From Parcubacteria group bacterium Licking1014_17 (lineage in GTDB: Bacteria; Patescibacteriota; Minisyncoccia; 2-02-FULL-40-12; IGHO2-01-FULL-4-A), in assembly GCA_007376485.1 (NCBI GenBank), contig VMGJ01000001.1, positions 41,788-105,787 on the forward strand: DNA of 64,000 bases. The letters run 5' to 3'. Positions 19,365 to 52,503 of this stretch are shown here, piece after piece. Every line of letters starts with the position of its first letter. The first letter of the stretch is position 1. The notes under the pieces are model-generated. The model did no database searches and was not told where the DNA came from. It saw only the letters and a program-made list of their open reading frames with translations. The position numbers and the translations under genes are program-made.

Positions 19365-20029
19365 TTCTTGCCTCTGTGCCAGCGAGCCTGATCAGCCTTC
19401 CTTTTTTCTTGAATGGCTTTTTTCGTCTCGCGGAGTTTAGCGGTTAAAGATTCAAGAGAATCCGATTTGTCCTTAATTTCTTTCTCTTTTGAGTAAAGGC
19501 AGAGAAGGATTTCCTGACTTTTTTTGTCCGCCTTTAGAAATTTTTTGATTTCTTCTGGCGATAATTCGGAAAGTTTTTGAAATACATGATTTCGTTCTTT
19601 CTCGCTTCTTCCCTCGAGTAATATGGCCAGGTGACCAGTAAATGCGATAAAATCTTCTTCCTCCAACTTAACAGCTGTTTTTAGAAGATTTTTTACCGGC
19701 TCACCCTGCTCAAGGGCAACAATATCACCAATACTTTCCTTTATACCATTGACAAACCCGGTTCTTTTTAATGCCTCAGCGGGAACATCATCCACAATTT
19801 CTTTGAAGAATTTTCCAAGCGCCGAATTTTCCGGGATATTTTTACTGACGATGGCGCCAGTCAATACCAAGGCAGCGCCAATAATTCCCTTCTGGATTTT
19901 AGGCAAATCCCGGAGTCCCTTCAGAGGACCCTCAAAAAGCTTGTCATACTGCCCCTCAAGCAGGGCCTTACCCAAAGTTGAGCTGCCCATAGAAAACACA
20001 TCACTCAATCCCGGAAATTTGATACCCAT
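19361..20029 (-). CDS. hypothetical protein, first gene of 3-gene operon
   Basis: 222 aa, one hydrophobic segment 'GIIGAALVLTGAIV', lysine/glutamate-rich C-terminus; no recognised motif. Confidence 0.55.
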   Translation of the reverse strand: MGIKFPGLSDVFSMGSSTLGKALLEGQYDKLFEGPLKGLRDLPKIQKGIIGAALVLTGAIVSKNIPENSALGKFFKEIVDDVPAEALKRTGFVNGIKESIGDIVALEQGEPVKNLLKTAVKLEEEDFIAFTGHLAILLEGRSEKERNHVFQKLSELSPEEIKKFLKADKKSQEILLCLYSKEKEIKDKSDSLESLTAKLRETKKAIQEKRKADQARWHRGKK

Positions 20030-20253
20030 TATGACCTCCGATTTTGAATAGGTTAAACACGTTTTAGATTAGCATCTATTTATCGCTGTTGTTTAAATTG
20101 TCAAAGAACAATTCCGTTATACGATATTATGGGGTTTTAGTAAATAACATGAACTAGGTAAAGCCCTCGCCATTCTTCGGCAGCGGGTTATTTTTGTCTT
20201 GTTTATAACTGATTATTGTATTGTTTGCCGGCCGTGTTACGATACAGATAACA

Positions 20254-25900: not shown

Positions 25901-28900
25901 TAGCCGAAAATATAACGACATCAAACGTGAGCGGTAGTATAACAGTTACCAGTGGCACTTTCAACGCCAGTAATGTTACGATTGCGGGCAACAGCGGCAA
26001 AACATTTGAGGTTGATAACGGAGCCACCTTCACGATGAGCGGCAATACAACTTTTCCGACCGGCTTTTCCACGTTTACTTTTCAGAGCACGAGCACCACA
26101 AAATACGGACAGAGTGTGGATTCGGATATTTCGGCGCAGAGCTATGGTTATCTGATAGTCAGTCCTGTTGCCGACCCCTCCAGCCACAGCGCTGATTTTT
26201 ATCTTGCTTCGGGAACCATTTCCACCGCCAGTGCTTTTATTGTCGCTTTGGGTTCCGCTGCCACTTCAGTTTTTGTTAATGCCGACACGAACGACCCGAC
26301 TCTTGATATAAACAGTTATTTGTCCATAGGCGCGAGCACGACTTTTCAGGCTTCAAATTCCGGAACTTTCACCATCAACGGCAGTTTGTTTAACGCCGGC
26401 ACGTTTACCCACAATAGCGGCACCGTCACTTTTGACAGCACCGCGAGCGGCAGGGGGATAAATATGAACGGCAGTTCACTATATAACTTGACGATTAACG
26501 GTTCCGGCGGCGAATGGTCGTCGCTCACAAATATGCTGACAGTAGCCAATGATTTAATCTTGACCGCCGGAACTTTAAACAATGCTTCCGGCAGTGCGGA
26601 CATTGAAGTCAACGGAAACGTTTCCTGTAACGGCACCTGCGGCACAGTCAGTTTGACAGCCGGAAAGTTTACCCAGAAAGTTGCCGCCGACAAAAATTTC
26701 GGAACGTCAGTGGCTGTTGCCACTGCCTGGACTTTCAATGCCTTGCATTTCACCAACAGCAGCGGCACCGACAGGATAATCACAACCAGTACCACCGGCA
26801 CCGGAACCATCACCGTAACAGCTTCCATGTCCATCGGCGTTTTCAGCGCCACCAACAAAGCCACGCTTGACGCCGACCACAGAACCTGGATTTTAAGCGG
26901 AAGTAATGAAGCCGATGCACACATTCCTCTTTCCATTGACGCCACCAAAGGAGCTCTAACCGCTCACGCATCGATTTTCCGCTACACCGGCAGTTCCACT
27001 ACCACAATCGAGGCGGCAACCTACTACAATCTTGAAGTAAAACCCGGTGGTGCCGTGACCCATACTTTCAAAGCGGGGACGACGACGGCTTACACTTTAA
27101 CCGCGGGAGACGGATCCAATAGCGGAACAATAACCACCAATACCAATAGCACGACCCTTGATATTGGTTTTGGAGGAGTTTCTATAGCTGCCTATGGCAC
27201 TCTCGTCGCCCATGCCAGCAATGCTTTTACTGTTGAAGGTTCATGGACAAACGCCGGCACTTTTACTCATAGTAGCGGCACGGTAACTTTTGACGGAACG
27301 ACGGTAGCTTCAATTCCAGTAACAACCGGCGGCAGTTCTTTCAATAATTTAATGATAGCGGGAGCGGGTAACTTCGCATTGCAGGATTCAACGACAATCG
27401 CCGGCGATTTGAAAGTAAACAGCGGCACCTTTTCTGGTGGCGTTGTCACGACTGTTAACGGCGACGTAACTTGTGTTACCACCTGCGGCACGATAAACTA
27501 TGCCAGCGGTATTTTTATACAAAACGTTGCCGGAAACAAAGCCTTCGGCACTACCGCCGGTACTGCTACGTGGACATTTAATGTTCTTCACTTTGCCGCC
27601 AGTGACGGTACTGACAGGGTGATTACCGCCAGTTCGGGTGGCACCGGAACCATCACCGTCACTGCCTCCATGTCCATCGGCGTATTCAGCGCCACTAACA
27701 AAGCTACGCTTGATGCCGGCAACAGAACATGGATTTTAAGCGGAAGCGACTCAAACGGTGATTCTCCCCTATCTATAGACGCCACTAAGGGCGCCTTAAC
27801 CGCTAACACGTCAACTTTCCGTTATACCGGCAGTTCAGCCACTACGATTGAGGCGGCTACTTATTACAATCTTGAAGTAAAACCCGGCGGCGCCGTGACC
27901 CATACTTTCAAGGCGGGGACAACAGGAGCAAATCATTTACTTACTATTGGCGACGGAGCTAATAGCGGAGTCGTAACAGCAAATACCAACAGTACTATTT
28001 TGGATGTAGGCGACGGCACAAGCGGCAGCGGCGTTTCAATCGCCGCCAGCGCCACGCTGACGGCCAACGCCAGCAACGGTTTCACGGTTTACGGCTCATG
28101 GACAAACGCCGGCACGTTTACCCACAGCAACGGCACGGTTACCTTTGACGGGGATGATGACTTAATTAGCTTTACCCTTACTCCGGCAAGCAGTCCATTC
28201 TACAATCTGACCGTAAATAATACGGGAGGCGCAATATGGACATTACAAAGCGGTCAGACTCTTATTGTAGCTAACGATTTATATATTAACGGCGGGACAC
28301 TGAACGACGATAGCGCTACTGCCATGGTTTTTAACGGAAACGTAACCTGTTCGGTGACCTGCGGTATTATCAACACCTCTGCCAATGTTATCCAAAACGT
28401 TGCCGCCAATAAAGTCTTCGGCACTACTGCCGGCACCGCCGCCTGGACTTTCAAAGCCCTTCATTTTGCCAACAGCAATGGAACCGACAGATTAATCACT
28501 ACCAGTTCGGGTGGCTCCGGAACCATCACCGTCACTGCCTCCATGTCCATTGGCGTTTTTAGCGCCACCAATAAAGCTACGCTTGATGCCGGCAATAGAA
28601 CTTGGATTTTAAGCGGGAGCGACTCAAACAGTGATCCCCCCTTAACTATTGACGCCTCCAAAGGGGTTTTGACTGCCAATACATCTACATTCAGATTTAC
28701 CGGTAGTTCCGCCACCACAATCGAACAAGCGACTTATTACAACCTTGAAGTAAAACCCGGCGGCGCCGTGACTCATACTTTCAAAGCGGGAACAACAGCG
28801 GCTTACGGGCTAACCGCTGGAGATGGAGTCAATAGCGGAGTCATAACGGCCAACACCAACAGCACAATCCTTGATATAGGTTTTGGGGGAGTTTCCATAG

Positions 28901-31227
28901 CCGCCAACAACACCCTTATTGCCCATGCCAGCAATGCTTTTACCTGCGAAGGTTCCTGGACAAACGCCGGCACATTCACCCATAGCAACGGCACGGTAAC
29001 TTTTGACGGAACTGGTTCCCACACAATTAATAACGGGGATAAAACCATTAATTCTTTTTACGGTCTAATAATTAATAAGGCGGGTGGAGTTTGGGATGTT
29101 ACGAGCAATGATATTGTAGTTCAATACTCACTTACAATAACAGCGGGAACTCTTGATTTAAACGGGCAGGGGTTATCTGCTAGTCTGACTTTGGTCAATG
29201 ATGACACTCTGCGTCTTCAAGGCGGTGAAACGATAACTGGATTAACTATGGACACAAATTCGGGGACAGTTGAATATGATGGCACTACCGGATACACCGG
29301 GCTTAAGGCAGGAAATGAATATTTTAATCTGAAATTTAGCGGTTCCGGAGGTTCTTGGACGTTAAATCATGACTTAGTCGTAAATGCCACTTTTGCTATT
29401 ACAAACGGAACAGTGGATGCGTCCGGTTCAAATTATGATATCAGCGTCGGCAAAAGCTGGAATAATGCCGGAACGTTCACCGCCCAGCAGGGTGCGGTCA
29501 CTTTTGACGGCAATTTTAATGTGGCGACATGGGGTATCACAACTGGCAGTAGTCCTTTTTATGATTTGGTAATAATCGGACCCGACCCCTATATGATCAG
29601 TAGCGACATTACTGTCCAAAACGATTTGGACGTGAACGGAAGCACCTTAAACGGCTTTGGTTCAAATGTCATGACCGTCAATGGAAATGTTACCTGCGTC
29701 ACTACTTGTGGCACTATTTCTGGATTAAATCTTTTCCAGACTGTCAGCGCAAACAAAGTCATTGGGCCCGTTACCGGCACGAACGACTGGTCGTTTGGTT
29801 TTCTTCATCTGTCCACTTCCGGAGGTTCGGACAGAACCATTACCGTGAACAGCGGAGGTAGCGGGGCATTTGCCGTGGCTTCCTCCATGTCCATCGGTGT
29901 TTACAGCGCTTCCGCGAAGACCATTCTTGACGCGGACAATAAGACATTTATATTGAACGGCAGCGACGAAGCCGATGGAGATGTTCCGTTCACCGTCGGC
30001 GCCAACGGCACTTTTACGCAAAATACTTCCACTTTCAGATTCGCCGGCACTTCGGCGACCACCGTTGCTGCGGGAACTTATTATAATTTGGAAATAAAAC
30101 CGGGCGGAACAGGCACTCACACCATAGCAAGCGGCGCTTTGAAAACGAATAATAATTTTGTAATTGGCGACGGGACGCATACCGGCTCGGTAAACGCTAC
30201 GACAAACGACCCCAATATCAACGTGGACGGAAGCTTTTCAATCGCGGCGAGTTCCGAGTTTGTTGCTTCTGACGCCGGAACATTTTCAATAGCCAAAAAC
30301 TTTTCGAATTCCGGCGCATTTACCCATAGCAATGGCACGGTAACTTTTGACTCACTTAACAACAGCACCGTCAGCGGCTCTAATACAATCTTTTATGGTT
30401 TATCGATGGCGACTGACAACAAAAAAATGAGGTTCACTGCCGGGCAGACGTTTGAAACTGACGGATTGATGACGCTTGGCGGTTCCGATGCCGACAATCA
30501 GGTTCAAATCGTTTCTACCGCCTCTGATTCGCAATGGTTTATAAATCACCAAGGGACCGAAAGCGTGAACTATACGTACGTCCATGATTCGGGTTGCGAC
30601 GCTTCCTCAACGGACATAACAGTTACTACGGGTACCGACGGCGGCAACAACGGGCTATGCTGGGTGTTCGATTATAATATAACGGTTGCGCTCTGTTCGG
30701 ATCCCGACATTGATTTTGGAACTTTGGCGCCGGGCAGCGGCAGGGTTACCAGAACCTCGTGTATTTCGATTAACACCAACAATCCCAGCGGTTATTCGAT
30801 CAGCGCCGGAAGGGACCGGGCAAGTCCGGCAACCACGCTTGCCTCCGAGGGGGATACAAGCATTAATATTTCCGATACGCTGAACGGCATTGATGTTTTT
30901 GACGGATTATCCAGTTGCACCGCCAGCCCCAATATAACTTCGCCGTGGGTTGAAGGTGCGTCAACAGGCCTCGGCTATGTTCTTTATAGAGCCGATGTCG
31001 GTAAAAGCACAACATGCTGGGGCACGGGGACAAACGAAACCGATTCCGCGAACCGATATGCTGCCTTGCCGGCTTCAAATGGACCGGCGGATGTATTTTT
31101 GAATGTGCCCGTAAATTCTCCGAATCCTTCCTATTCTTCGGTCGGCTGGAGTTTGGATATCCCCACAAATCAAATTCCCACTTCTTACGGCGGTATGGTG
31201 ATTTATTCAATTACCGCTAATCCTTAA
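22939..31227 (+). CDS. giant (2762 aa) repetitive cell-surface protein
   Basis: N-terminal TM, S/P/E-rich linker, ~285-aa tandem repeats ('TFTHSNGTVTFDG..TGTITVTASMSIGVFSATNKATLDAGNRTWILSGS..'), C-terminal ~230-aa domain shared with 33669..34433. Confidence 0.85.
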   Translation: MKRIDLKKIIHTGQFFAVKKIFATKRTLKLIFAAAITATVIFIVIFSFVNAGLFNFYPQTCLGDWEYAENASGKPDLPPDATTEKFDKNNSAFFSGGYRKIFCGNFRSNDESGDKIFQKAKLRLSWTLVPDINSAVPVIDQSEFQKNILDYSGDEKIIVVPDEEKSAPEKQENTVLPSPDVSSSAEEKTLEPVPSESPSPQSESIPPTESPQSPAEENTAQENADVGEPSSFNGTSLFKMGLLGVFRTALTENIGSLLGLIMEINNNSSSSLEETLTPTEPSVFMPEISMETTSEKVETSSTPASIAAGDGTASKSESPLEKEIIPPKSLDDFLEILYSVDGKNWESIGNVNLDSFNNAEFEVPIISWNELANLQIRIGGTGLTDSVSGVYLDGMWLEVSYSDSQDEVVSEDIMRGLPKVQVKDSDVFKSKKKDFRFNEDVKFEINLGKTASGSVDENTKPPATPEPSSLLKNSYKNILGAESALAAGRIVEARVYSPTGKLTNIKPYIKQDTGTETAQIFFSPPGRAYKSGKYKLVVEILQDDRVVVAEHDFTWGVLALNANKSIYIPGESAYLQFASLSNIGHTLCDSNLELIITPPKGPEWVLSVEDGDIKRSDTCGPNNYTDKPDYYAYYTPEYTGAYGLTLKNLDNGNEITDSIQADGLVDMDVERVGATRINPFLGQNYFTTINIKAGQPFEGEIVDTLPKGFVVMGSSDYIVRKTPTGDVEVVWRKILLRGDTAILTYEYDPADISPELFLLGPLKFIAKSDPLSSFFQEARQWQLASDYSCVAKATGAWSASGTWTTCNSTTPQPTDTVTIATTYVVTLDTSATIAGLSLANTAQLNHPGTNALTVNGSVALTPPPTVNFNQWNIAGGTATVTGAITWGAGGSSKVSKILITTGTLNASGGLSFGCLNYPASCLIDMSGGAGTLNLSGAITSVTKGQLTAGTTSTFVYADQSADQTIQMAWGGGSYNNLGINNGAKVATVAENITTSNVSGSITVTSGTFNASNVTIAGNSGKTFEVDNGATFTMSGNTTFPTGFSTFTFQSTSTTKYGQSVDSDISAQSYGYLIVSPVADPSSHSADFYLASGTISTASAFIVALGSAATSVFVNADTNDPTLDINSYLSIGASTTFQASNSGTFTINGSLFNAGTFTHNSGTVTFDSTASGRGINMNGSSLYNLTINGSGGEWSSLTNMLTVANDLILTAGTLNNASGSADIEVNGNVSCNGTCGTVSLTAGKFTQKVAADKNFGTSVAVATAWTFNALHFTNSSGTDRIITTSTTGTGTITVTASMSIGVFSATNKATLDADHRTWILSGSNEADAHIPLSIDATKGALTAHASIFRYTGSSTTTIEAATYYNLEVKPGGAVTHTFKAGTTTAYTLTAGDGSNSGTITTNTNSTTLDIGFGGVSIAAYGTLVAHASNAFTVEGSWTNAGTFTHSSGTVTFDGTTVASIPVTTGGSSFNNLMIAGAGNFALQDSTTIAGDLKVNSGTFSGGVVTTVNGDVTCVTTCGTINYASGIFIQNVAGNKAFGTTAGTATWTFNVLHFAASDGTDRVITASSGGTGTITVTASMSIGVFSATNKATLDAGNRTWILSGSDSNGDSPLSIDATKGALTANTSTFRYTGSSATTIEAATYYNLEVKPGGAVTHTFKAGTTGANHLLTIGDGANSGVVTANTNSTILDVGDGTSGSGVSIAASATLTANASNGFTVYGSWTNAGTFTHSNGTVTFDGDDDLISFTLTPASSPFYNLTVNNTGGAIWTLQSGQTLIVANDLYINGGTLNDDSATAMVFNGNVTCSVTCGIINTSANVIQNVAANKVFGTTAGTAAWTFKALHFANSNGTDRLITTSSGGSGTITVTASMSIGVFSATNKATLDAGNRTWILSGSDSNSDPPLTIDASKGVLTANTSTFRFTGSSATTIEQATYYNLEVKPGGAVTHTFKAGTTAAYGLTAGDGVNSGVITANTNSTILDIGFGGVSIAANNTLIAHASNAFTCEGSWTNAGTFTHSNGTVTFDGTGSHTINNGDKTINSFYGLIINKAGGVWDVTSNDIVVQYSLTITAGTLDLNGQGLSASLTLVNDDTLRLQGGETITGLTMDTNSGTVEYDGTTGYTGLKAGNEYFNLKFSGSGGSWTLNHDLVVNATFAITNGTVDASGSNYDISVGKSWNNAGTFTAQQGAVTFDGNFNVATWGITTGSSPFYDLVIIGPDPYMISSDITVQNDLDVNGSTLNGFGSNVMTVNGNVTCVTTCGTISGLNLFQTVSANKVIGPVTGTNDWSFGFLHLSTSGGSDRTITVNSGGSGAFAVASSMSIGVYSASAKTILDADNKTFILNGSDEADGDVPFTVGANGTFTQNTSTFRFAGTSATTVAAGTYYNLEIKPGGTGTHTIASGALKTNNNFVIGDGTHTGSVNATTNDPNINVDGSFSIAASSEFVASDAGTFSIAKNFSNSGAFTHSNGTVTFDSLNNSTVSGSNTIFYGLSMATDNKKMRFTAGQTFETDGLMTLGGSDADNQVQIVSTASDSQWFINHQGTESVNYTYVHDSGCDASSTDITVTTGTDGGNNGLCWVFDYNITVALCSDPDIDFGTLAPGSGRVTRTSCISINTNNPSGYSISAGRDRASPATTLASEGDTSINISDTLNGIDVFDGLSSCTASPNITSPWVEGASTGLGYVLYRADVGKSTTCWGTGTNETDSANRYAALPASNGPADVFLNVPVNSPNPSYSSVGWSLDIPTNQIPTSYGGMVIYSITANP
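26395..29010 (+). repeat. tandem ~856-nt (285-aa) intragenic repeats, 3 near-identical units plus degenerate units to ~30.4 kb
   Basis: Unit starts marked by 'GGCAC.TT.AC.CA.A..A.CGGCAC.GT.AC.TTTGAC' at ~26398, 27258, 28110, 28966; long identical stretches e.g. 'GTCACTGCCTCCATGTCCATCGGCGT' recurring. Confidence 0.8.
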
Positions 31228-31230
31228 CTT

Positions 31231-33588
31231 ATGTTTATCAGGGATGATTTTATAAATAGTTTTGATTATATTCTCTACAGGATAATCAGGTTCGGCATTC
31301 TGTTCGTGCCGTTTATTTCTCTGGTTGTAATTAGGAATATTTATTCGCCGTTTGAATTCAGTAAAGGGATTGTTTTCCGGGTAATCACCGAAATAATTTT
31401 TTTCATTTATGTTTATCTGGCGTTTAAATATCCGAATCTCCGCCCGTCTTTTTTTAAAAAAAGGCCGGATAAATATGTGCTGGCCGGTTTGGTCGCCTTA
31501 GTGGTTCTCGTAGTATGGCATTTTATTTCCGGATTATTCAGTTCAAGCTGGACTCTTAGTTTTTGGGGCTATATAGAGAGGATGGGCGGCATTTTCGCGT
31601 TGCTTCACTATATCGCTTTTTTTGGAGTTGCCGCTTCAATACTGCGCACGAGGAAAGAGTGGGAAAATCTTATCTGGGCTTCGGTGGCGGCGGCGCTGAT
31701 TTCATCAGTTTACGGCATTCTGCAAAAATATTCCGTAAGCGCGGTTGTCGGCGCGGACCAGAGGTTCAGAATTTTCGGGACCGTCGGCAACCCGGCTATA
31801 TTCGCCGGCTATCTGCTTTTTAATTTCTATTTTGTTTTATACCTGTCTTCGCGTCAGGAATCGAAAATACGCAGATTCCTTCTGTATTTCGCCGCATTCA
31901 TATTCGCATCCGCGATAATTTTGTCAGCCTCCCGGGGAGCGGCGGCGGCTCTAATTGTAAGTTTTGTTTTTTTGATTTTTTATATTCTGTATAAAAAAAG
32001 CGCCAGTCCATACGGAAAAAAGAAGAGCTTGATTATCGCGGCGCTCGCGGTAGTCATTATTGCCACAATTTTTTCCGGGATTGTATTAACTCGTTCCGGG
32101 TCCGGGCTCGGATATTTTTCCAGACTGACCGATTTCAGTGTGAAGAGCGGCTCCATAAATTCGCGGTTGCTTGTCTGGGGCATGGCGCTAAAAGGGATAG
32201 CCGAAAAACCGGTTTTGGGCTGGGGTCCCGAAAATTTTATAGCCGTTTATTACAAGAAATACGACCCTAAAATGTATGAGTCGCCGGCTCAAGATTATTC
32301 TTCTGACAGGGCTCATAATATTATTTTGGATTGGCTGGCTGCCGTCGGTGTTGTGGGCTTGCTGTCTTATCTGCTGATTTGGTACTGCGCGATAAGGAAA
32401 ATTGGCGCCCGGGATTACAATGATATGCCGTATTTTTCTCGAGGAGCGCTTTATGCCGCCGCCGTCGCGTATTTTGTTTTTAATTGCACTTTTTTTGACA
32501 CGACTAACACTTATCTGATGGTTATTTTTTTTATGGGCTTGGCTTTTCTTTGGGACGATTATGTGGCAGACGGAGTGGCGACAAAAGTGCCGGAAGGTAA
32601 TACCCCGGTCAACACCGTAGTCGGCGTATTGGCTCTGGTTTCCTGTTCTATTTTAATTATCTGGGCGAATATCCTGCCGTTTCTGTCAAACTATTATACA
32701 AATATGAATAAGAGGGCAAACAGCAGGGGGGATTTCGGGGAAGCGTTTAAGTATCTTGAACTCGCGAGAAACACCGCCACATGGACGGAAACCGACGCCG
32801 TGAGGAATTTAACTTCAGAACTGATAACCGCCCTGAACACGCAAGCGGATTATTTTAAAAACGAAGATAACAGAAAATCTTTCGGGGTTATCGCGCAGGA
32901 TCTTCGCGACGAGATGGAAAAACGTCCGGAGGACGCCGCTTCGTACACTTTTTTATTTAAAATGGAACAAATACTCGCGGCAAATTTTGGAAAGCAGATT
33001 AAACCCGTTGAAGATACCATCTGGACAGCAACCGCCATATTTCCCAAATTGATTCCGCTTTATTATGAACTTTATTACAGCGCCTTGATACGAAATGATT
33101 TTGAAGGAGCCACGAATGTAGCGAACAAAATATTGGAAATCAGACAGGACTTGCCCTTTGGAAAGTTTTGGCTCGCGTATGTCATAACTCGGAAGGATTT
33201 AAACGATAAAAATAGGACAAAACTGCGGAGTTCTTTAAATACCTTGGGCGACAGCTTTGACAGTTCGTTGTTTAACGCAGGCGATAATTACGGCAGTATA
33301 AAACCGTTGCTTGACGAGTTGAGTTATAAATTAAGGAAGACGGGTTATTATCTGGAGATGAGAGATTTGCATTTAATGATAGCAAAATATAAGCCTTCAA
33401 GTTATGTTTATGCGAGCTACGCGAGTTATATGATGCGTGACTTAAAATCAGCCATGAAATACGCCGACGAAGCGCTCGCTCTTGACAATAGCCTAATGAG
33501 CAGTAAGGACTATGAAACATTAGCCGACATTTATGGGGCATTGGGTGATAGAAAAAAACAAGGAGAAGCATACATAAAGATTCAATAA
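31231..33588 (+). CDS. Wzy_C (O-antigen ligase / O-oligosaccharyltransferase-like) polytopic membrane protein with C-terminal TPR repeats
   Basis: 785 aa; ~12 TM helices; 'SASRGAAAALIVSFVFLIF' matches Wzy_C/RfaL/PglL-type ligase core; C-terminal ~300 aa of TPR-like helical repeats ('DYETLADIYGALGDRKKQGEAY'). Confidence 0.65.
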   Translation: MFIRDDFINSFDYILYRIIRFGILFVPFISLVVIRNIYSPFEFSKGIVFRVITEIIFFIYVYLAFKYPNLRPSFFKKRPDKYVLAGLVALVVLVVWHFISGLFSSSWTLSFWGYIERMGGIFALLHYIAFFGVAASILRTRKEWENLIWASVAAALISSVYGILQKYSVSAVVGADQRFRIFGTVGNPAIFAGYLLFNFYFVLYLSSRQESKIRRFLLYFAAFIFASAIILSASRGAAAALIVSFVFLIFYILYKKSASPYGKKKSLIIAALAVVIIATIFSGIVLTRSGSGLGYFSRLTDFSVKSGSINSRLLVWGMALKGIAEKPVLGWGPENFIAVYYKKYDPKMYESPAQDYSSDRAHNIILDWLAAVGVVGLLSYLLIWYCAIRKIGARDYNDMPYFSRGALYAAAVAYFVFNCTFFDTTNTYLMVIFFMGLAFLWDDYVADGVATKVPEGNTPVNTVVGVLALVSCSILIIWANILPFLSNYYTNMNKRANSRGDFGEAFKYLELARNTATWTETDAVRNLTSELITALNTQADYFKNEDNRKSFGVIAQDLRDEMEKRPEDAASYTFLFKMEQILAANFGKQIKPVEDTIWTATAIFPKLIPLYYELYYSALIRNDFEGATNVANKILEIRQDLPFGKFWLAYVITRKDLNDKNRTKLRSSLNTLGDSFDSSLFNAGDNYGSIKPLLDELSYKLRKTGYYLEMRDLHLMIAKYKPSSYVYASYASYMMRDLKSAMKYADEALALDNSLMSSKDYETLADIYGALGDRKKQGEAYIKIQ

Positions 33589-33668: not shown

Positions 33669-34433
33669 ATGAGTAAAAAGCCGTCGTTTTTCTCGGCGAG
33701 TGCCGAATTGAAGGTTGTGGTATTCGTTGCCGTGTTTGTCTTCTTTTCTTGGATTTTTATTGATAACAGAATCTATTTTAATTTTTTTAAATCGTTGGAC
33801 GCCAACGCGGCCACAAGCGGAACGGCCAGCCAAAATATGAGTATTGATGTGGGTGTGGGGCTTACTTTCGTGAAATACAGCAGTGTTGCATGGCGCAATG
33901 ATTCGGAGACTCCCACGAGTACTATAACTTCCGGCACTCCTCTGCATTCTACGCAAGCCTTGCAGGTTACGACTAACGACAATTACACAATATCGGTCGG
34001 TCGAAAAAGGCAAAGCCCCAATACGACACTCGCTTCGGCCAGCGATGTGACTATTCATATAGAAGATGCGAGTACAGGTATTGATGTTTTTAACGGGCTG
34101 GCAAATTGCACTACTGCTACAAGCACGACAGCCTACTGGCCTGTCACGGGAGCTGTATCAGTCGGTATTGGCTTCAGCAACTGGAAAACCCAGATTGCCG
34201 GCGATAAAAGCTCTTGCTGGGGAACGGGGACTGTAGATAATGAATCTACCCCCTCCACAAATAGATATGCCGCGCTTCAAGCGTCAGCCAGCGCCAGTAC
34301 GTTTTTGTCAACTACTAATCATCCCTTGGGGGTTTCGTATTTTTCCGTCGTGTACCGACTAGACGTAACGGCTAGCCAAAGAGCCACCAACTATTCAGGC
34401 ACGGTTAATTATACGGCGACTACCCAACCCTGA
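33669..34433 (+). CDS. small surface protein sharing the giant protein C-terminal domain
   Basis: 254 aa; N-terminal hydrophobic anchor; aligned motifs with end of giant protein: 'IDVF(N/D)GL', 'SCWGTGT', 'NRYAAL', C-terminal 'Y(S/G)G(T/M)V.Y..TA'. Confidence 0.7.
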   Translation: MSKKPSFFSASAELKVVVFVAVFVFFSWIFIDNRIYFNFFKSLDANAATSGTASQNMSIDVGVGLTFVKYSSVAWRNDSETPTSTITSGTPLHSTQALQVTTNDNYTISVGRKRQSPNTTLASASDVTIHIEDASTGIDVFNGLANCTTATSTTAYWPVTGAVSVGIGFSNWKTQIAGDKSSCWGTGTVDNESTPSTNRYAALQASASASTFLSTTNHPLGVSYFSVVYRLDVTASQRATNYSGTVNYTATTQP

Positions 34434-34475: not shown

Positions 34476-35405
34476 ATGATGAAAAGATTTAACAAGAAAA
34501 TAATAATAACACTGGTGATTATTTTGGGTGTTTTTATGTTATCTCTTGGTTTTGTTTGGGCGATAGGCGTGGGGATATCCATTTCTCCATTGAAATATAA
34601 ATATAGTGTCGACCCAGGCACGGTTATAGATGATGTGATTAATGTCGGCAATCCGAATGCAGGTGATCTTAGAGTGAAGGTTGAGTTTCAGGATTTTATG
34701 GTTACCGAGGGTAATAATATCAAATGGATTCCAAACGACATCGAGAACCCCCATAAAATGGTTGACTGGATTGATATTGATACGGAGCCGTTTACGGTGG
34801 CCCCGGGGAAACAGGTAGCCGTGCCCTTTAAAATAAATGTCCCGAAAAACGCCACTCCGGGAGGAAAATACGCGGCAATATTTTTCAGCGAGGCGGATAA
34901 AGGTGGCGGAAATTTATTAGGCGCGATCGCACGTGTCGGGTCACTGATTATTATGAATGTTAATGGTGACGTCAAGCAAACCGGGCAGCTGGTTGATTTC
35001 ACCGGGCCCACCATAGCGTGGAGCGGACCGGTCAATTTTGTTCTTAGTATGATGAACGTGGGCACCACGCATTTTGAGGTAAAGCCGGTGGTCACGATAA
35101 ATAATTTTTTCTGGCAAAGCGCAAAGATATTGCCGGAGTCAAAATTTATTTATCCCAATGTCAAGAGAGATATTCCGATTAAATGGGAGAAAAGCAATCC
35201 GTTCGGATTGTACAGCGCCAAAGTTTCCGTAACCGATGGGGAGGGGACTGTTTTTGAGAAAACAAAATGGTTTGTCGCAATTCCGGCTACATATGCCATA
35301 ATAATACTGGCCGTTGTTTTGGTGTTATGGTTTGGAATCAGGTTCTTTAAGCATACGTTCAAAATTTCCAAGATTATTACCAGAAAAAGCAGATCGGCAG
35401 CCTGA
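34476..35405 (+). CDS. surface protein with signal peptide and C-terminal TM anchor (paralog 1)
   Basis: 309 aa; N-terminal TM/signal, 'PGGKYAAIFFSEA', C-terminal 'AIIILAVVLVLWFGIRFFKH' + basic tail. Confidence 0.65.
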   Translation: MMKRFNKKIIITLVIILGVFMLSLGFVWAIGVGISISPLKYKYSVDPGTVIDDVINVGNPNAGDLRVKVEFQDFMVTEGNNIKWIPNDIENPHKMVDWIDIDTEPFTVAPGKQVAVPFKINVPKNATPGGKYAAIFFSEADKGGGNLLGAIARVGSLIIMNVNGDVKQTGQLVDFTGPTIAWSGPVNFVLSMMNVGTTHFEVKPVVTINNFFWQSAKILPESKFIYPNVKRDIPIKWEKSNPFGLYSAKVSVTDGEGTVFEKTKWFVAIPATYAIIILAVVLVLWFGIRFFKHTFKISKIITRKSRSAA

Positions 35406-35424
35406 TATTAATTATTATTTAATA

Positions 35425-36303
35425 ATGCTTAGAAACTTTCTAGTTATTGTTGGCGTAGCTTTGGTTACGTTGTTTTTTCCCTTTTTTGTCCATGCTTACC
35501 AGGGAGGAATTCTTTTGGATCCCGTAAAAATCGAACTTGACGTTTTTGCGGGACAGGCGGCATCTAGAGAGATAACAATTACGAATCAAAATCCGTTTGC
35601 GGTGACGATCAGTCCGGAAGTGATGAATTTTAAAGTTAGTGAGAACAGCGAAATTCACTGGTATATCGGCGCGATTTCAGACCCATTGCGGAGTTCGGCC
35701 TGGCTGGAGGTAGACGAAAAATCCTTTGTCCTTAAATCCGGCGAAGCAAAAAGAGTCGGAGTCAGCGTGGCAATACCCGCCGATACCCAACCGGGCGGTA
35801 GATATGCGACCGTTTTTTTCAACAGCAAGCCCGTTGATGCTCAAAATAAAAACGCGGACGTAAGAGCCGGCACTATGGTTATCATCAATGTACCCGGCGC
35901 CATCAGTAAAGCCGGGAATATTGTCGGTTTTAATTCGCCTTTATTCGTCATCGGCGGGCCGCTTGATTTCATCGTAAAATTCGCGAACACCGGCAAGACG
36001 CATTACAACACCAAAGCGACCCTGAAAATATCCAATTTATTCTGGAATGTCGCCAATATTTCAAGCGACCAAAAATTTTTATATCCGGACGTCATACGCG
36101 AGATTCCGATCAAATGGAACACGGCTTCCCTTTTTGGCATCTACACCGCGCAGCTGTCCGTTACCGACGGCCAGGGCGTCGTACATACGGCAGAGAAACA
36201 TTTTGTAGGCGTTTCCATCAAATATTTGGCGCTGCTCATTGCCTTAGGATTTATTGCCTGGTTTGGGAGAAAAAAACTTCTGGCCAGAAAAAGTAGCGCG
36301 TAA
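35425..36303 (+). CDS. surface protein with signal peptide and C-terminal TM anchor (paralog 2)
   Basis: ORF open from 35314 but upstream gene ends 35405; ATG 35425; 'PGGRYATVFFNSK', C-terminal 'YLALLIALGFIAWFGRKKLLARK'; co-linear similarity with 34476 gene. Confidence 0.65.
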   Translation: MLRNFLVIVGVALVTLFFPFFVHAYQGGILLDPVKIELDVFAGQAASREITITNQNPFAVTISPEVMNFKVSENSEIHWYIGAISDPLRSSAWLEVDEKSFVLKSGEAKRVGVSVAIPADTQPGGRYATVFFNSKPVDAQNKNADVRAGTMVIINVPGAISKAGNIVGFNSPLFVIGGPLDFIVKFANTGKTHYNTKATLKISNLFWNVANISSDQKFLYPDVIREIPIKWNTASLFGIYTAQLSVTDGQGVVHTAEKHFVGVSIKYLALLIALGFIAWFGRKKLLARKSSA

Positions 36304-36319
36304 TTTATTTCTCTAACTA

Positions 36320-36964
36320 ATGGTTGATAAGTTTTCACACAAGATATTTTTTGTGTTCCTGTTTGCAGCCCTGGTTTTTATTTGTATAACAAAAGTATAC
36401 GCGGCAGATCCAGTAGACCAAAACGTTACTATAACCGTAGGGCAAACCGGTATTGTATATTTGAATTTTACTTTTAGCCCCCAAGGCAGATGGACCGGCG
36501 GAGGAAATAATGACGCGTCAAATGTTGTCGTTGAGGTAAGACCCGTAGACGGCAATAAGGACAGTATAATTTTTAGCGAGGAAGTGACTACCGACAACAG
36601 CGGCCAATATTCATCCTTGCTTCTGGATAATGTAAGTCCGGGAACATATGACGTGAGCGCCAAGGGTTGGGCAACTCTAAGAAAAAAGGAGGTAACCGTA
36701 ATATTGGCGGAGGGCAATAACACCATTGATTTTACCGACACGGGCGCCGATAAAGCCCTCTCCGGAGATTTGGATTCAACGACCCGGGTCGGAAGCGCCG
36801 AAAGCGGTGATAACGAAATCAGCGCCGCCGATTATTCAACTTTGATCGGAAATTACAATACGGTGCAGGACAGGTATGATTTGGATAAATATACGGACCA
36901 GTTAATCGCCGGCCCGGATTATTCAATTCTTGTATCGAATTATAGCCAAGAAGGCGACCAGTGA
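36320..36964 (+). CDS. secreted protein: carboxypeptidase-regulatory-like domain + dockerin-like tandem Ca-binding repeats
   Basis: Signal peptide 'FFVFLFAALVFICITKVYA'; 'LDNVSPGTYDVSAKGW' (CarbopepD_reg-like); C-terminal duplicated 'GDLDSTTRVGS..ISAADYSTLIGNY' / 'DRYDLDKYTDQLIAGPDYSILVSNY' dockerin-like. Confidence 0.55.
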   Translation: MVDKFSHKIFFVFLFAALVFICITKVYAADPVDQNVTITVGQTGIVYLNFTFSPQGRWTGGGNNDASNVVVEVRPVDGNKDSIIFSEEVTTDNSGQYSSLLLDNVSPGTYDVSAKGWATLRKKEVTVILAEGNNTIDFTDTGADKALSGDLDSTTRVGSAESGDNEISAADYSTLIGNYNTVQDRYDLDKYTDQLIAGPDYSILVSNYSQEGDQ

Positions 36965-36977
36965 TGTTTTATAAAAA

Positions 36978-37658
36978 ATGAATACGCGCTTTTCAGTCAA
37001 AATTATTTTTTTTACCGCCGTTCTGGCATTAGTTATTATTTTATTGGCATTCAACAACAAGGAGAGCCGAAATAACGGTAATAATTTGATAACCGTCTAT
37101 GGAAATGTGTTAAATGCCCGGGATAATCTTCCCCTTGGCAGTGTTACTGTCCAATCGGGCGAGTCCAGAAGCGTAACTGATTATCAGGGCAAATTTGTCT
37201 TACTGAATGTCCCCCGAGACGGTGAAATAAGGATTGAAAGCGGAAACTTATATGAAGAAGTTATTATTCCTATTAATGGGCGATCGAACATTACCGTTTA
37301 TCTGGATGGAGATTTGCTTGGAATTTTTCGGGATATTGAGCGATATGAAAACAACAGGCAATATTCAAAAATCTATGACCTATTTACGCCTGATTTAAAA
37401 AAACATTACACGCTGGATGCTTACTTGAAAAAAAAGAATAGCTGGCGCGATAACATTACGGAGGGAAAAAATTATGACGGGTTCAAAATGGAATTTCTGC
37501 GCCATACCGTCAAAGGCGGCAATTCTTCATCTATTATAACGGTTACTACTAAATATTCCTGGCTTAAGGGCGAGGAAACTAAATATATTCACGCAATTGA
37601 TGTAAAATTAATATGGGACGGCAACATCTGGGAGTTGGGCAATGATTTGATCTGGTAA
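36978..37658 (+). CDS. membrane-anchored protein with carboxypeptidase-regulatory-like domain
   Basis: 'VYGNVLNARDNLPLGSVTVQSGESRSVTDYQGKFVLLNVPRDGEIRIE' matches CarbopepD_reg-like beta-sandwich pattern. Confidence 0.55.
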   Translation: MNTRFSVKIIFFTAVLALVIILLAFNNKESRNNGNNLITVYGNVLNARDNLPLGSVTVQSGESRSVTDYQGKFVLLNVPRDGEIRIESGNLYEEVIIPINGRSNITVYLDGDLLGIFRDIERYENNRQYSKIYDLFTPDLKKHYTLDAYLKKKNSWRDNITEGKNYDGFKMEFLRHTVKGGNSSSIITVTTKYSWLKGEETKYIHAIDVKLIWDGNIWELGNDLIW

Positions 37659-39815
37659 ATGAATTTTAAAGGCAAAAATATTTTTTACTACGCAAGCCGG
37701 TTGTTTTTCGGGTTCTTTGCGCTCGCCGGCATTTTTTATTTTTTATCGTGTGATGCCAGGGCGGCTGTCACAATGGACATGACCGCCTCCGCCGGCGTCA
37801 AATATGTCGGTACCACGTTTAATGTCAGTGTGAGGGTAAAGTTGGATAGTCAGAATATTGATACCGTTTCGTTGAGAAATCTGAACTTTGACCACGATAT
37901 TTTGGAAATAACCGGAACGTCCATCCAGAGCTTGTTTTCATCCCAAGCAACATTAAGAAATGTTACCGACAACACCGCGGGGACAAAAAGGCTCGATATC
38001 GGCAAATTGCCGCTAACCGATGATTACACCAATTCATCGGCAGCTACATTTGCAATTTTAACCTTTAAGGTGAAGAACGTTGGTACCGGAACGACAACCT
38101 TAACAATAGATTATGACGGTAGCCCGGGAAAATCCGGAGTTTTTTTGGCAGGAACAAATTATTTGGCGTCGGTGCTGCCGCTTGATGTTTCGCTTGGTTT
38201 GGACGACACGGGACCGGCTTTCAGCAATTGTACGCCCGTGGCTAACGTCGTGAACCAGCAGGTTACCGCCAACATAGTTTGCGACGTAACCGACACGGAG
38301 ACTGGAGTTTATCTGGGAGGTACGACTCTGACTGTCAACGGCATCACTTATTCCAATAGCGGAGCTAACCAGTACACAAGCGCCGAGATTGCCAACGGTT
38401 ACCAGTTGACCGTGAATCCCGAAGATAATCTGCCCTACAACACGTCCATAACGGTCAGCGGATCCGCGCAGGATAGCGCCTATGATGACGGTCCGGTACT
38501 GGCGCGAAATACCGGCACACTGGCGGAATACGCGTTTACCACCGAGGATGACGATGACGCGCCGACTATTTATAATAAAAGCCCCGACTCCGGCGCCACA
38601 AGTATTTCAGTGTCAACTAATGTCAGTTTTGGCATAAAAGACATTGCTGTTCCGGGAGACTATAATGGTCTTGGCGTTGATATTGATAGTATTCAAGTGA
38701 TTATATCCGCCGATAACTGGGGAACTGTAACCTACACTCACGGCGGCGAAAAACAATTCAGCCATTCCGGCAATCAATACGATTATACCATCACGATCAA
38801 CCCTTCGCCGGATTTTCCCCAAAATACCACCGTTACCGTAAGTATTGCCGCTGACGACCTGCACAGTTCACCTAATTCAGTATCCACCTCTTATTCGTTT
38901 ACCACGGCGGATACCTCTCTGCCGACATGTTCCAATTTTATACCGGCGGAGAATAAAGCGGATATCGAGCCAACCGACACTATCTCTTTTGATTGTTCCG
39001 ATTCCGGGGCAGGAATTAATATAGATACCATAAGCGTGATCGTTAATAAATCCACCTATACAAAATCAAAGAGCGGTTTTTCGTATACTGGCGACTCATC
39101 AAAATACAATATAGTCATAACTCCGCCGGGCGGATTTGCTTATGATTACGCTTTTGAGGTGATAATCAACGGCAGAGATATGAAAAGCAACTCAATAACG
39201 GAGACTAGCTACGGGTTGGCTACAAGAATACAAGGGGGAGGCGGCGGAGGCGGCGGAGGAGGAGGGGGAGGGGGAGGAGGAAATCAATGCCCGACCTGCC
39301 AAGTATGCCCGGCGCAACCATCGCCGGAATTTTCCAATGGGCCTTTGCCGACAGAAAATCCTTACTCAACTCCAAAACCCGGGAAAACACCCAATCCGGC
39401 CATTTGTCCTTCAATAGCACCCGAAGTTCCTTATCAAATACCGTTTGCCCCGACAATTGAAGATATGCAATCTGTCGCGTTGCAAAAAGTCAACGGGACC
39501 GATGTTCAAGGCATCACCATTTATCAAATATCCGGACCGATGATTACATTGGAAGGAACCGCGAAACCGCAGGGTTTGGTTGGCCTCCAAATGGAACCGG
39601 GACCGATTGTGGTCCAAACAATCGCCGACAACAAAGGTGAATGGAAAGTAACCATATCCAATGTTCTGGGTCCCGCCGAAAATCTGCTATACGCGATCTC
39701 CCGCAACCCAATTAACGGCGCCACGGAAAAAAAATTCCTGATTATCCTTCATAACACCTATAAAGGCATAGATGCTTATCTCCGGGCGCAAAAGATGAGA
39801 ACGCAACTTTGGTAG
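37659..39815 (+). CDS. cell-surface protein: cohesin-like N-terminal domain, three Ig-like repeats, poly-Gly + Pro-rich linker, C-terminal domain
   Basis: Signal/TM; 'TTFNVSVRVKLDSQNIDTVSLRNLNFDHDILEITG..ATFAILTFKVKNVGTGTTTLTIDYD' cohesin-like; repeated 'D(T/D)..P..S(N/P)..P' Ig-like units; 16xGly; 'NQCPTCQVCPAQPSPE..'. Confidence 0.6.
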   Translation: MNFKGKNIFYYASRLFFGFFALAGIFYFLSCDARAAVTMDMTASAGVKYVGTTFNVSVRVKLDSQNIDTVSLRNLNFDHDILEITGTSIQSLFSSQATLRNVTDNTAGTKRLDIGKLPLTDDYTNSSAATFAILTFKVKNVGTGTTTLTIDYDGSPGKSGVFLAGTNYLASVLPLDVSLGLDDTGPAFSNCTPVANVVNQQVTANIVCDVTDTETGVYLGGTTLTVNGITYSNSGANQYTSAEIANGYQLTVNPEDNLPYNTSITVSGSAQDSAYDDGPVLARNTGTLAEYAFTTEDDDDAPTIYNKSPDSGATSISVSTNVSFGIKDIAVPGDYNGLGVDIDSIQVIISADNWGTVTYTHGGEKQFSHSGNQYDYTITINPSPDFPQNTTVTVSIAADDLHSSPNSVSTSYSFTTADTSLPTCSNFIPAENKADIEPTDTISFDCSDSGAGINIDTISVIVNKSTYTKSKSGFSYTGDSSKYNIVITPPGGFAYDYAFEVIINGRDMKSNSITETSYGLATRIQGGGGGGGGGGGGGGGGNQCPTCQVCPAQPSPEFSNGPLPTENPYSTPKPGKTPNPAICPSIAPEVPYQIPFAPTIEDMQSVALQKVNGTDVQGITIYQISGPMITLEGTAKPQGLVGLQMEPGPIVVQTIADNKGEWKVTISNVLGPAENLLYAISRNPINGATEKKFLIILHNTYKGIDAYLRAQKMRTQLW
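39232..39282 (+). repeat. GGN codon homopolymer (16 consecutive Gly)
   Basis: 'GGGGGAGGCGGCGGAGGCGGCGGAGGAGGAGGGGGAGGGGGAGGAGGA'. Confidence 0.85.
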
Positions 39816-51585: not shown

Positions 51586-51623
51586 ATTGTCTGTTTTTTC
51601 GGGGTTTATAAAAATGCGAATAA

Positions 51624-51766
51624 TTAGCGGTTTTTATCATCATTTACCCTGCCAGCGTCAGGATTCATTCCGTCAGAGCTGTGGATTTGGCTTGAAGTTT
51701 AGGAAGATATTATACTTCAAGCCAACCGTGCAATCCACAGCTCTGAACGGTGCTAAAAACCGCTAG
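51624..51766 (+). repeat. structured intergenic element family B, diverged copy B6
   Basis: Outer stem 'TAGCGGTTTTTA'/'TAAAAACCGCTA'; 'CCAGCG' loop; stem 'CAGAGCTGTGGATT'/'AATCCACAGCTCTG'; inner 'GGCTTGAAGT'/'ACTTCAAGCC'; 'AACCGTGC' conserved. Confidence 0.7.
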
Positions 51767-51781
51767 TTATTTGTTTTTTTT

Positions 51782-52501: not shown

Positions 52502-52503
52502 TT

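Follow-up and report, generated by a model that had tools for sequence, protein, structure and literature searches.

The question raised by this locus is which acceptor is served by an enzyme whose deposited name, 'lipid A core-O-antigen ligase-like enzyme [Parcubacteria group bacterium Licking1014_17]' (P0001, 100% identical to the 785-aa product analysed here), invokes lipid A in a member of the Patescibacteria, which are monoderm and not known to make lipid A. The gene lies in a 64-kb stretch of DNA (the window); no tRNA genes were found in it and a scan for promoters and terminators gave signal at background level only. A previous sequence-only reading had proposed a 12-TM protein O-oligosaccharyltransferase (O-OTase) with a TPR-like tail, acting on the adjacent surface proteins. 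The gene and the parts of its product are the following.

31231..33588, + strand: Wzy_C-TPR gene, an ORF with an ATG start, 785 aa, member of the cassette clade described below
31231..32724, + strand: membrane domain, aa 1–498, 13 TM helices, WaaL-like GT-C(B) fold
31888..32373, + strand: Pfam Wzy_C match (PF04932), aa 220–381, including SASRGAAAAL and the large outside loop
31933..31935, + strand: codon of R235, aligned with WaaL R191 (HMM alignment to 7TPG)
32164..32166, + strand: codon of R312, aligned with WaaL R265 (same alignment)
32314..32316, + strand: codon of H362 (within DRAHN), which aligns with WaaL H313 and is the putative catalytic base (same alignment)
32725..33585, + strand: predicted extracytoplasmic, all-alpha TPR-like tail, aa 499–785, 15 helices, assigned by fold and family profile

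The match to PF04932 scores 74.9 bits against a cut-off of 31.7, which places the protein in the Wzy_C/O-antigen ligase superfamily, and the SASRGAAAAL core on which the sequence-only reading relied is indeed present at aa 232–241. The AF2 model of the complete enzyme (pLDDT 90.6, pTM 0.90) contains 13 membrane helices, correcting the original count of 12, and its membrane domain adopts the fold of a WaaL-type GT-C(B) transferase. A PDB search with the single query sequence returned nothing relevant, and TPR matches dominated when the profile of the full-length family was used, a difficulty solved by using an alignment of the membrane domain only.

The two arginines and the histidine aligned with those of WaaL are each invariant in all 91 relatives compared, as are E116, R117, H126, N187, D359, Y414, F422 and D423; all of these invariant residues sit in loops predicted to lie outside the membrane. 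In WaaL-type transferases the outside-loop Arg/Arg pair is assigned to pyrophosphate binding and the His to the role of catalytic base. This assignment is in part drawn from PMC12800693, which gives the equivalent His a role in PglS and WaaL catalysis and describes the catalytic residues as common to ligases and O-OTases. The intact Arg/Arg/His set bears out the proposal of a WaaL- or O-OTase-like enzyme; since both types share these residues, they cannot distinguish an O-OTase from a ligase.

With 13 rather than 12 TM helices, the ∼290-aa tail should be extracytoplasmic, and the positive-inside rule applied over 62 homologs favours an N-in, C-out orientation. Model, charge distribution and homology to WaaL, from which the topology is derived, together support a location of the tail on the outside of the cell. 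An additional TM helix that carries a C-terminal domain outside is the architecture of PglS, PglL and WsfB, and the model predicts it here. The fold of the tail matches CTPR and the TPR of OGT, and the family profile matches consensus TPR with E = 1.5e-163. The query sequence itself has no Pfam TPR match at E < 0.01, so that its repeats are degenerate; the TPR-like tail first described thus stands by fold and family profile, though not by a Pfam match of its own. Comparison of the clades gives 18% identity for the tail and 33% for the membrane domain, which makes the tail the most clade-specific part of the enzyme and fits, as far as sequence comparison goes, a role as an acceptor-specificity module. 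Against the O-OTase reading, TPR domains elsewhere also act as scaffolds in the export of polysaccharides or recognise ligands other than proteins.

The enzyme is encoded within a run of genes on the same strand.

20221..22860, + strand: p879, first gene of the run, which lacks the C-terminal domain (CTD) described below and is paralogous to repeats within the giant protein
22939..31227, + strand: large surface protein, 2762 aa, with an N-terminal TM segment, Thr/Ser/Gly-rich repeats and the CTD at its end
30682..31224, + strand: CTD at the end of the large protein, ∼175 aa, with 42% identity to aa 72–254 of p254
33669..34433, + strand: p254, a small 'domain-only' CTD protein with an N-terminal hydrophobic helix and the CTD at aa ∼72–254
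34476..35405, + strand: p309, WxLIP/DUF916-like, with a signal peptide, an Ig-like domain, a C-terminal TM helix and a basic tail
35425..36303, + strand: p329, a p309 paralog (32% identity), probably starting at ATG 35425 and not at TTG 35314
36320..39815, + strand: three further secreted or anchored proteins of 214, 226 and 718 aa, with weak CarboxypepD_reg and Big_5 matches; these are variable accessory genes that are not kept in other cassettes

The upstream neighbour is, as had been noticed, a giant Ser/Thr-rich protein (2762 aa; 13.3% Thr, 10.9% Ser and 10.5% Gly, with a single N-terminal TM segment), and the enzyme gene does begin just beyond it, the stop codon ending at 31227 and the ATG following at 31231 after a 3-nt spacer. 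The Ser/Thr-rich region is not the conserved partner of the enzyme: the upstream protein is only ∼470–570 aa long in relatives, versus 2762 aa here, and the partner that is kept, both upstream and downstream of the enzyme, is the ∼175-aa CTD. Synteny with a giant protein across the wider family was also considered and discarded (79 of 80 GTDB loci are without one), and the analysis turned to the query's own clade.

The CTD is unannotated and is shared by one large and one domain-only protein of the cassette; in the large protein (P0174) the CTD HMM aligns with residues 2563–2762. The family comprises 289 representative clusters, always at the protein end, and in 149 of 150 cases no more than 10 aa separate the end of the domain from the C-terminus. 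Its structure model is beta-rich, at moderate confidence (pLDDT 67). Ala/Ser-rich invariant segments within the CTD are only suggestive as to a sequon; invariant stretches of the domain include YAALQASxSAS and TTLAS. The possibility that it is a true WxL domain was rejected, as Pfam WxL matches neither p254 nor the CTD of the giant protein, nor any of 34 family members and ten distant members; its likeness to WxL is best described as an architectural analogy. For the most distant CTD protein (P0169, locus L091), the contig stops too soon for a cassette context to be seen. For the anchored protein, WxLIP_PGBD scores 22.3 bits in p309, below the cut-off of 27.3, and 28.8 bits, above it, in the ortholog from locus L081; it is matched by eight of 11 members of the p309 family (best E = 5e-07). 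WxLIP_HBD (DUF3324) was not detected in this family.

Among the 91 relatives compared, the query and 11 other cassette-linked enzymes form an exclusive clade. All 12 clade loci carry the cassette, consisting of the enzyme, a pair of CTD proteins and an anchored protein of the WxLIP/DUF916-like type, and in ten of them the enzyme lies directly between the two CTD genes; the gene order is permuted in one locus (L089) and a transposase takes the place of the upstream CTD gene in another (L083). None of the remaining 79 family members has a CTD protein within 10 kb, and a search begun from a CTD protein recovers the enzyme in three of three loci. The linkage to neighbouring surface-protein genes proposed from the single locus is therefore real, being kept throughout the enzyme's clade. 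Dedicated O-OTases are encoded beside their acceptor genes, as are TfpO with pilA and PglS with comP, and the enzyme here is likewise linked to genes for candidate acceptors, the CTD proteins. Such linkage would also be expected of an enzyme that builds an envelope ligand bound by the CTD proteins.

Wzy_C enzymes with TPR form a large family in Patescibacteria, with at least 569 loci that lie mostly in Und-PP-glycan clusters, and genomes carry several paralogs as well as tandem arrays. The host genome probably contains a second cassette, since a paralog (P0007) and a CTD protein (P0152) appear to share one 55,060-bp contig. The sister clade adjoins a Bac_transf PGT in 38 of 80 loci and also Wzx flippases, sugar-nucleotide enzymes and GT2, whereas no PGT, Wzx, GT or other glycan-donor genes were found in the 64-kb window, nor PGT, Wzx or GT genes within 10 kb of three other cassettes (L088–L090). 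Without donor genes near the cassette, a donor would have to be supplied in trans. Most of the wider family lies in polysaccharide-type gene clusters with PGT and Wzx, the cassette clade outside such clusters.

The reading that we favour, with about an even chance of being correct, is a dedicated protein O-oligosaccharyltransferase for the surface proteins of the cassette, comparable to TfpO, PglS or WsfB. The original proposal of an O-OTase acting on the adjacent surface proteins is partly supported, in this form, by the fold, the catalytic residues, the 13th helix and the clade-wide linkage; it is weakened by the lack of discrimination in those residues, and its partner becomes the CTD. Because the residues do not discriminate, the wider family occupies polysaccharide clusters and the window holds no donor genes, this is put forward as the best hypothesis and not as a demonstrated function. 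The enzyme would be a WaaL-fold transferase dependent on a polyprenyl-diphosphate-glycan, with the 13-TM domain binding, on the outer side of the membrane, an Und-PP-linked glycan that has been flipped, R235 and R312 engaging the pyrophosphate and H362 acting as base. The extracytoplasmic TPR tail might recruit the acceptors, which would be the surface proteins encoded by the flanking genes and sharing the obligately C-terminal, beta-rich CTD. Together with the membrane-anchored WxLIP/DUF916-like protein, the CTD proteins could then assemble at the cell surface into a complex with the organisation of a Firmicute WxL cluster.

The alternative that survives best, although we consider it unlikely, is a ligase for a non-protein acceptor, resembling TacL, that would transfer an Und-PP-linked polymer to a membrane glycolipid or wall polymer and so produce a ligand bound by, or masking, the CTD/WxLIP-like complex. 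The fold and catalytic residues, the same as in WaaL, would serve such a ligase equally, the sister clade resides in polysaccharide-type clusters, and TacL demonstrates that Gram-positive Wzy_C proteins can be glycolipid ligases (PMC5727136). WxL/WxLIP-type complexes are wall-binding (PMC10599100), so that co-encoding of an enzyme that makes their ligand is plausible. However, TacL and WaaL are proteins of ∼400 aa without an extracytoplasmic tail (the 7TPG chain has 413 aa), whereas the present enzyme has a 13th helix and TPR; the cassette holds no genes for glycolipid or polymer synthesis, and the enzyme is usually sandwiched directly between two CTD genes.

A broader and rather improbable interpretation, which we offer as speculation, is that the cassette constitutes a new Patescibacteria-wide system for surface-protein sorting and maturation, in which the CTD would be read by the TPR tail of the WaaL-like enzyme and transfer of a glycan, possibly a wall-related Und-PP precursor, would be needed to assemble or anchor a WxL- or fibre-like adhesin complex. 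Such a system would be the functional analogue of a C-terminal sorting domain coupled to envelope-attachment machinery of its own, as in the CTD of T9SS with A-LPS, or sortase.

There is little to recommend a Wzy-type polymerase joining Und-PP-linked repeat units of a surface polysaccharide. Pfam Wzy_C covers polymerases too and the sister clade adjoins PGT and Wzx genes, but the match to the NCBIfam model glyco_rpt_poly ('oligosaccharide repeat unit polymerase') reaches only 19.2 bits, far below its cut-off of 40, and the closest relative in sequence and fold is the ligase WaaL, with the Arg/Arg/His triad invariant. The cassette clade lies outside polysaccharide clusters and is without wzx, wzz or GT genes, so that neither location nor model identifies a polymerase; no Wzz-like co-polymerase occurs among the conserved neighbours, and the multiple paralogs and tandem arrays better fit acceptor-specific transferases. 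We regard as very improbable a non-catalytic assembly platform, in which the membrane-anchored TPR would chaperone or dock CTD subunits of a donor-strand-type fibre or complex. A classical WaaL ligating O-antigen to lipid A-core, as implied by the NCBI name and compatible with the fold, is so improbable as to be set aside, since the host is expected to be monoderm and without a lipid A pathway, the annotated ORFs of the 64-kb window include neither lpx nor waa genes, the context is a surface-protein cassette, and WaaL has neither the extra TM helix nor the TPR tail.

The Patescibacteria (CPR) are ultra-small bacteria that live mostly as episymbionts, and their surface proteins are thought to mediate host attachment. 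To our knowledge, almost nothing is known about the modification and display of these proteins, and a search of the available literature returned no relevant paper linking O-antigen ligases, O-OTases or WxL to CPR/Patescibacteria. The four-gene cassette, which combines a WaaL-like/TPR enzyme, a new family of CTD surface proteins and a WxLIP-like anchor, is a concrete and testable unit that could be transferred to the established E. coli bioconjugation assays of PglL and PglS. Should the enzyme prove to be an O-OTase, it would be the first sign that adhesin-like complexes in CPR undergo dedicated protein O-glycosylation, show that WxL-like surface-complex architecture is not confined to the Firmicutes, and supply a new pair of OTase and sequon with an unusually long TPR acceptor-binding module. 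Should it not, the misleading name 'lipid A core-O-antigen ligase' would still be corrected in a lineage expected to be without LPS.

Of the known systems, WaaL from Cupriavidus metallidurans (7TPG/7TPJ) is a tailless protein of ∼400 aa and 12 TM helices with lipid A-core as acceptor; it shares ∼14–15% sequence identity with the present enzyme, which adds the 13th helix and the ∼290-aa outside TPR domain and whose host is expected to be without LPS. TacL of Streptococcus pneumoniae is also a Wzy_C protein using an Und-PP-linked polymer in a monoderm, but differs in its length (397 aa), its lack of a TPR or other outside domain, its glycolipid acceptor and the absence of linkage to surface-protein genes. 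The general-type patescibacterial enzymes ('O-antigen ligase family protein / tetratricopeptide repeat protein') have the same length, 13-TM plus TPR plan and invariant residues; they differ in forming a sister clade with 27% identity to the cassette clade, in having canonical TPRs with many Pfam matches, unlike the query's tail, and in residing in PGT/Wzx/sugar-nucleotide clusters without CTD or WxLIP-like neighbours. The cassette as a whole mirrors the WxL clusters of Lactobacillales and Bacillales, which combine a large protein with the domain at its extreme C-terminus, a small domain-only protein and a WxLIP, the last being represented here by a WxLIP/DUF916-like protein with signal peptide and C-terminal TM helix; this resemblance is best treated as analogy. 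The strictly C-terminal, small-plus-large arrangement is matched, but Pfam does not identify two C-terminal WxL domains: its WxL model recognises no CTD, distant members included, and a dual W-x-L motif is not evident, the phylum is different, DUF3324 is missing from the matches, and no Wzy_C-TPR enzyme has been described in WxL clusters. The O-OTases PglL, PglS and TfpO/PilO of Gram-negative bacteria and WsaB/WsfB of Gram-positive S-layers, likened to the enzyme by description and not by sequence comparison, resemble it in their Wzy_C core and in having catalytic His and Arg residues. Their acceptors are pilins or S-layer proteins, whereas those proposed here would be a new domain family; the tail is long, with ∼15 helices, and the cassette, unlike slg clusters, is without glycan synthesis genes. 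PglS has 13 TM helices and an extracytoplasmic C-terminal domain (PMC12800693), and PglL as well as WsfB, an S-layer O-OTase, are reported to carry a C-terminal TPR after Wzy_C (PMC2943079).

The enzyme, a Wzy_C-TPR protein, is encoded directly behind the Ser/Thr-rich giant surface protein (22939-31227, +; 2762 residues). The adjacency described in the sequence-only reading holds, with 3 nt between the stop, which ends at 31227, and the enzyme start.

31231-33588, +, Wzy_C-TPR gene, ORF with an ATG start, 785 residues
35314-36303, +, p329, a mechanical ORF with a TTG start that overlaps p309 (34476-35405, +); ortholog alignment suggests ATG 35425 as the real start

The Wzy_C core claimed around SASRGAAAAL (residues 232-241) is borne out by a Pfam Wzy_C match over residues 220-381 (74.9 bits against a cut-off of 31.7); an NCBIfam search of the enzyme produced only sub-threshold matches, to IctB and a repeat-unit polymerase. 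An indexed protein search showed 100% identity to a deposited Licking1014_17 protein named 'lipid A core-O-antigen ligase-like enzyme', a name that is generic and misleading. Other window genes include MreB/MreC/PBP2, aaRS genes, GroEL, MurJ, SLT, TGT and two PMT_2 GT-C genes, and the gene content apart from the enzyme region is compatible with a small monoderm-type genome.

The AF2 model of the enzyme, based on an alignment of 62 homologs (A1), is confident (pLDDT 90.6, pTM 0.90) and shows 13 membrane helices, correcting an earlier count of 12, with a large loop at residues 291-363 and 15 more helices at residues 502-784. The conserved loop Arg and His residues are present: R235, R312 and H362 align with WaaL R191, R265 and H313 in an HMM alignment and are invariant in 91 of 91 relatives, as are E116, R117, H126, N187, D359, Y414, F422 and D423. 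Judged from these residues, the enzyme is probably catalytically active. In both WaaL and the O-oligosaccharyltransferase (O-OTase) PglS, the equivalent Arg residues are proposed to guide and bind the Und-PP pyrophosphate and the equivalent His to be the catalytic base (PMC12800693); since the same roles are proposed in both, the Arg/Arg/His set cannot tell a ligase from an O-OTase.

Among the 62 homologs the short predicted-inside loops are Lys/Arg-rich, the predicted-outside loops are not, and all invariant polar residues lie in the latter. With WaaL (12-TM, N-in/C-in) as the topology reference, the added 13th helix would place the tail outside the cell. The TPR-like nature ascribed to this tail was recovered in its fold and family profile, although not as a Pfam match: the Pfam TPR models did not match the tail of this sequence, yet it matches TPR superhelices in structure comparison and the family profile matches consensus TPR proteins (E=1.5e-163), so that the tail is a degenerate TPR domain.

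Wzy_C+TPR proteins of ~740-790 residues are abundant in Patescibacteria: an indexed search gave 157 matches, and the GTDB species representatives hold at least 569 loci, 80 of which were compared for their neighbourhoods. In 79 of these 80 the neighbours are classical polyprenyl-PP-glycan genes, as confirmed by Pfam, which places the donor chemistry of the family in Und-PP-glycan pathways; the 'surface-protein' context is therefore not general. The neighbours across the 80 loci include a Bac_transf phosphoglycosyltransferase (38 loci), GDP-mannose dehydratase and other epimerases (48 loci), Wzx-type flippases (Polysacc_synt, Polysacc_synt_3), UDP-sugar dehydrogenase, GT2, DegT and PMT- and TMTC-like GT-C proteins. 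In 36 of the 80 loci (for example L045:14551-16302, and 35 others), a conserved secreted protein of ~583 residues is encoded 2-4 genes downstream of the general-type gene, the sister type of the enzyme studied here; it contains an HExxH-like motif and matches no Pfam family. Paralog arrays also occur, as in L062, where four general-type genes (745, 740, 722 and 736 residues) stand in tandem; the MAG to which this contig belongs bears the label 'uncultured Gammaproteobacteria', probably through a binning or label error.

The window also carries a tandem pair of GT-C genes:

10642-14015, -, two tandem PMT/PMT_2 GT-C glycosyltransferase genes, 601 and 522 residues

In six other genomes a homolog of the first gene is found 3-5 kb upstream of a general-type Wzy_C-TPR gene, and TMTC_DUF1736+TPR GT-C proteins occur in other loci; together these suggest that the bacteria have a second candidate system for protein glycosylation, of PMT/TMTC-like type.

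The gene context of the window is common only to the nearest relatives of the enzyme (31-36% identity). Gene-by-gene comparison showed that the last ~175 residues of the giant protein (~2582-2762; the CTD) are homologous to most of p254 (33669-34433, +; 42% identity), which is encoded directly downstream of the enzyme. In the window, L001 and L081-L087, a CTD-ending protein is followed by the Wzy_C-TPR protein, a small CTD-only protein (227-254 residues, with an N-terminal hydrophobic segment) and a p309-like protein (~295 residues), the sole exception being L083, with a transposase in place of the upstream gene:

L083:678-1376, -, IS200-like Y1_Tnp transposase at the usual site of the large CTD-protein gene before the enzyme gene

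A reverse search started from the CTD family instead of the enzyme led to three further loci, L088-L090, which hold all four families among housekeeping genes, in permuted order in L089. In a neighbour-joining tree the 12 cassette-linked enzymes group exclusively with one another (41% identity inside this clade, 27% to the remaining relatives), and a CTD HMM search of the other 79 Wzy_C-TPR loci gave no match. Clade specificity is greatest in the tail of the enzyme (18% identity between clades versus 33% for the membrane domain). A second cassette is probably present in the same genome, because an enzyme paralog (P0007) and a CTD protein (P0152) are each on a contig of 55,060 bp, presumably one and the same. 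Two cassettes have genes for bAvd/23S_rRNA_IVP, accessory proteins of diversity-generating retroelements (DGRs), either within them or a short way upstream (L085:1353-1721, where the gene separates the enzyme gene from the large CTD gene, and L089:6678-7034), so that cassette adhesins may be DGR targets; no such gene was noticed in the window.

The proposed tie between the enzyme and its neighbouring surface proteins thus extends across the clade and from both search directions, but its partner is different from that envisaged. The upstream CTD protein has only ~466-573 residues in relatives, and the 2762-residue protein is an expanded version of it. The preceding protein, p879 (20221-22860, +), is paralogous to the repeats inside the giant protein (~35-40% identity, four HSPs) and lacks the CTD, leaving 22939-31227 as the only one of the two 'giant' neighbours in the CTD family. 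Because of this shortness in relatives and the lack of a CTD in p879, the conserved partner is the CTD and not the Ser/Thr-rich bulk. A Pfam search gave no model for the CTD family, which comprises 289 representative clusters in an exhaustive HMM search. Among the best 150 of these, the CTD ends within 10 residues of the C-terminus in 149. These 150 divide into 88 small proteins that consist of the domain only, most of them with a hydrophobic segment at the N-terminus, and 62 larger ones (up to 2854 residues), some of which carry lectin-like passenger domains. Proteins of the p309 family combine a signal peptide and an Ig-like domain with a C-terminal TM helix that bears a basic tail. Eight of 11 members match Pfam WxLIP_PGBD (DUF916; best E=5e-07), one ortholog exceeding the gathering score and the window p309 falling below it. 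p309 has a tandem paralog in p329 (32% identity). In other cassettes there are also dockerin- and cohesin-like proteins.

Two further gene groups lie on either side of the cassette:

17020-20029, -, three divergently oriented ORFs directly upstream of the surface-protein gene run (301 residues with a signal peptide; 480 residues with several TM segments; 222 residues)
50011-53745, MacB-type tripartite ABC system (HlyD-like adaptor, ABC ATPase, MacB_PCD/FtsX permease), ~10 kb downstream of the cassette

The three ORFs had no match in a Pfam search. A similar MacB-type system (L091:1706-5021) is directly followed by two small CTD-like genes; the arrangement may be due to chance, or may reflect a link to the export of CTD proteins.

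The best-supported reading, with roughly an even chance of being correct, is that the enzyme is a dedicated protein O-OTase. An Und-PP-glycan would bind at the outer membrane face, R235 and R312 would contact the pyrophosphate and H362 would act as the base; the TPR tail would draw in the neighbouring surface proteins by their CTD, and a hydroxyl side chain would accept the glycan. In favour of this reading are the active site of WaaL type, a 13th helix that, as in O-OTases, is joined to a domain on the outside (here TPR), the clade-specific linkage to CTD genes, confirmed from both search directions, and the absence of LPS expected in Patescibacteria. The original proposal of an O-OTase for the adjacent surface proteins instead of an LPS ligase is partly supported, but the active-site residues do not discriminate, and the lack of any donor-pathway gene in the 64-kb window or near the L088-L090 cassettes is a weakness. 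The same linkage to CTD genes would also arise if the enzyme were a TacL-like ligase building an envelope glycoconjugate bound by a CTD/WxLIP-like complex, which we consider unlikely. A Wzy polymerase is very improbable given the gene context, the WaaL triad and the sub-threshold repeat-unit polymerase match, and a purely scaffolding role is about as improbable given the invariant catalytic set. Host and enzyme architecture make a true LPS ligase barely credible.

Wzy_C+TPR O-OTases are already known from other bacteria. PglS has 13 TM helices and a periplasmic C-terminal domain (PMC12800693), resembling the predicted arrangement of the enzyme, and a TPR motif C-terminal to Wzy_C, as here, is reported for PglL and for WsfB, an O-OTase of Gram-positive S-layers (PMC2943079). 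In contrast, TacL, a Gram-positive Wzy_C glycolipid ligase of 397 residues (PMC5727136), has no TPR-type tail. The cassette shares its layout with the WxL clusters of Lactobacillales and Bacillales, which are defined by a large C-terminal-domain protein, a small domain-only protein and a DUF916 anchored protein (PMC10599100, PMC9772566). The likeness is one of layout only: homology of the CTD to the WxL domain is not supported, the Pfam WxL model never having matched the CTD proteins searched. Within the literature searched, two things appear to be new: the patescibacterial family divides into a cassette clade and a clade of glycan clusters, and a four-family cassette is conserved in which an undescribed C-terminal domain family stands in a WxL-like arrangement. 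The cassette offers a clear experimental route.
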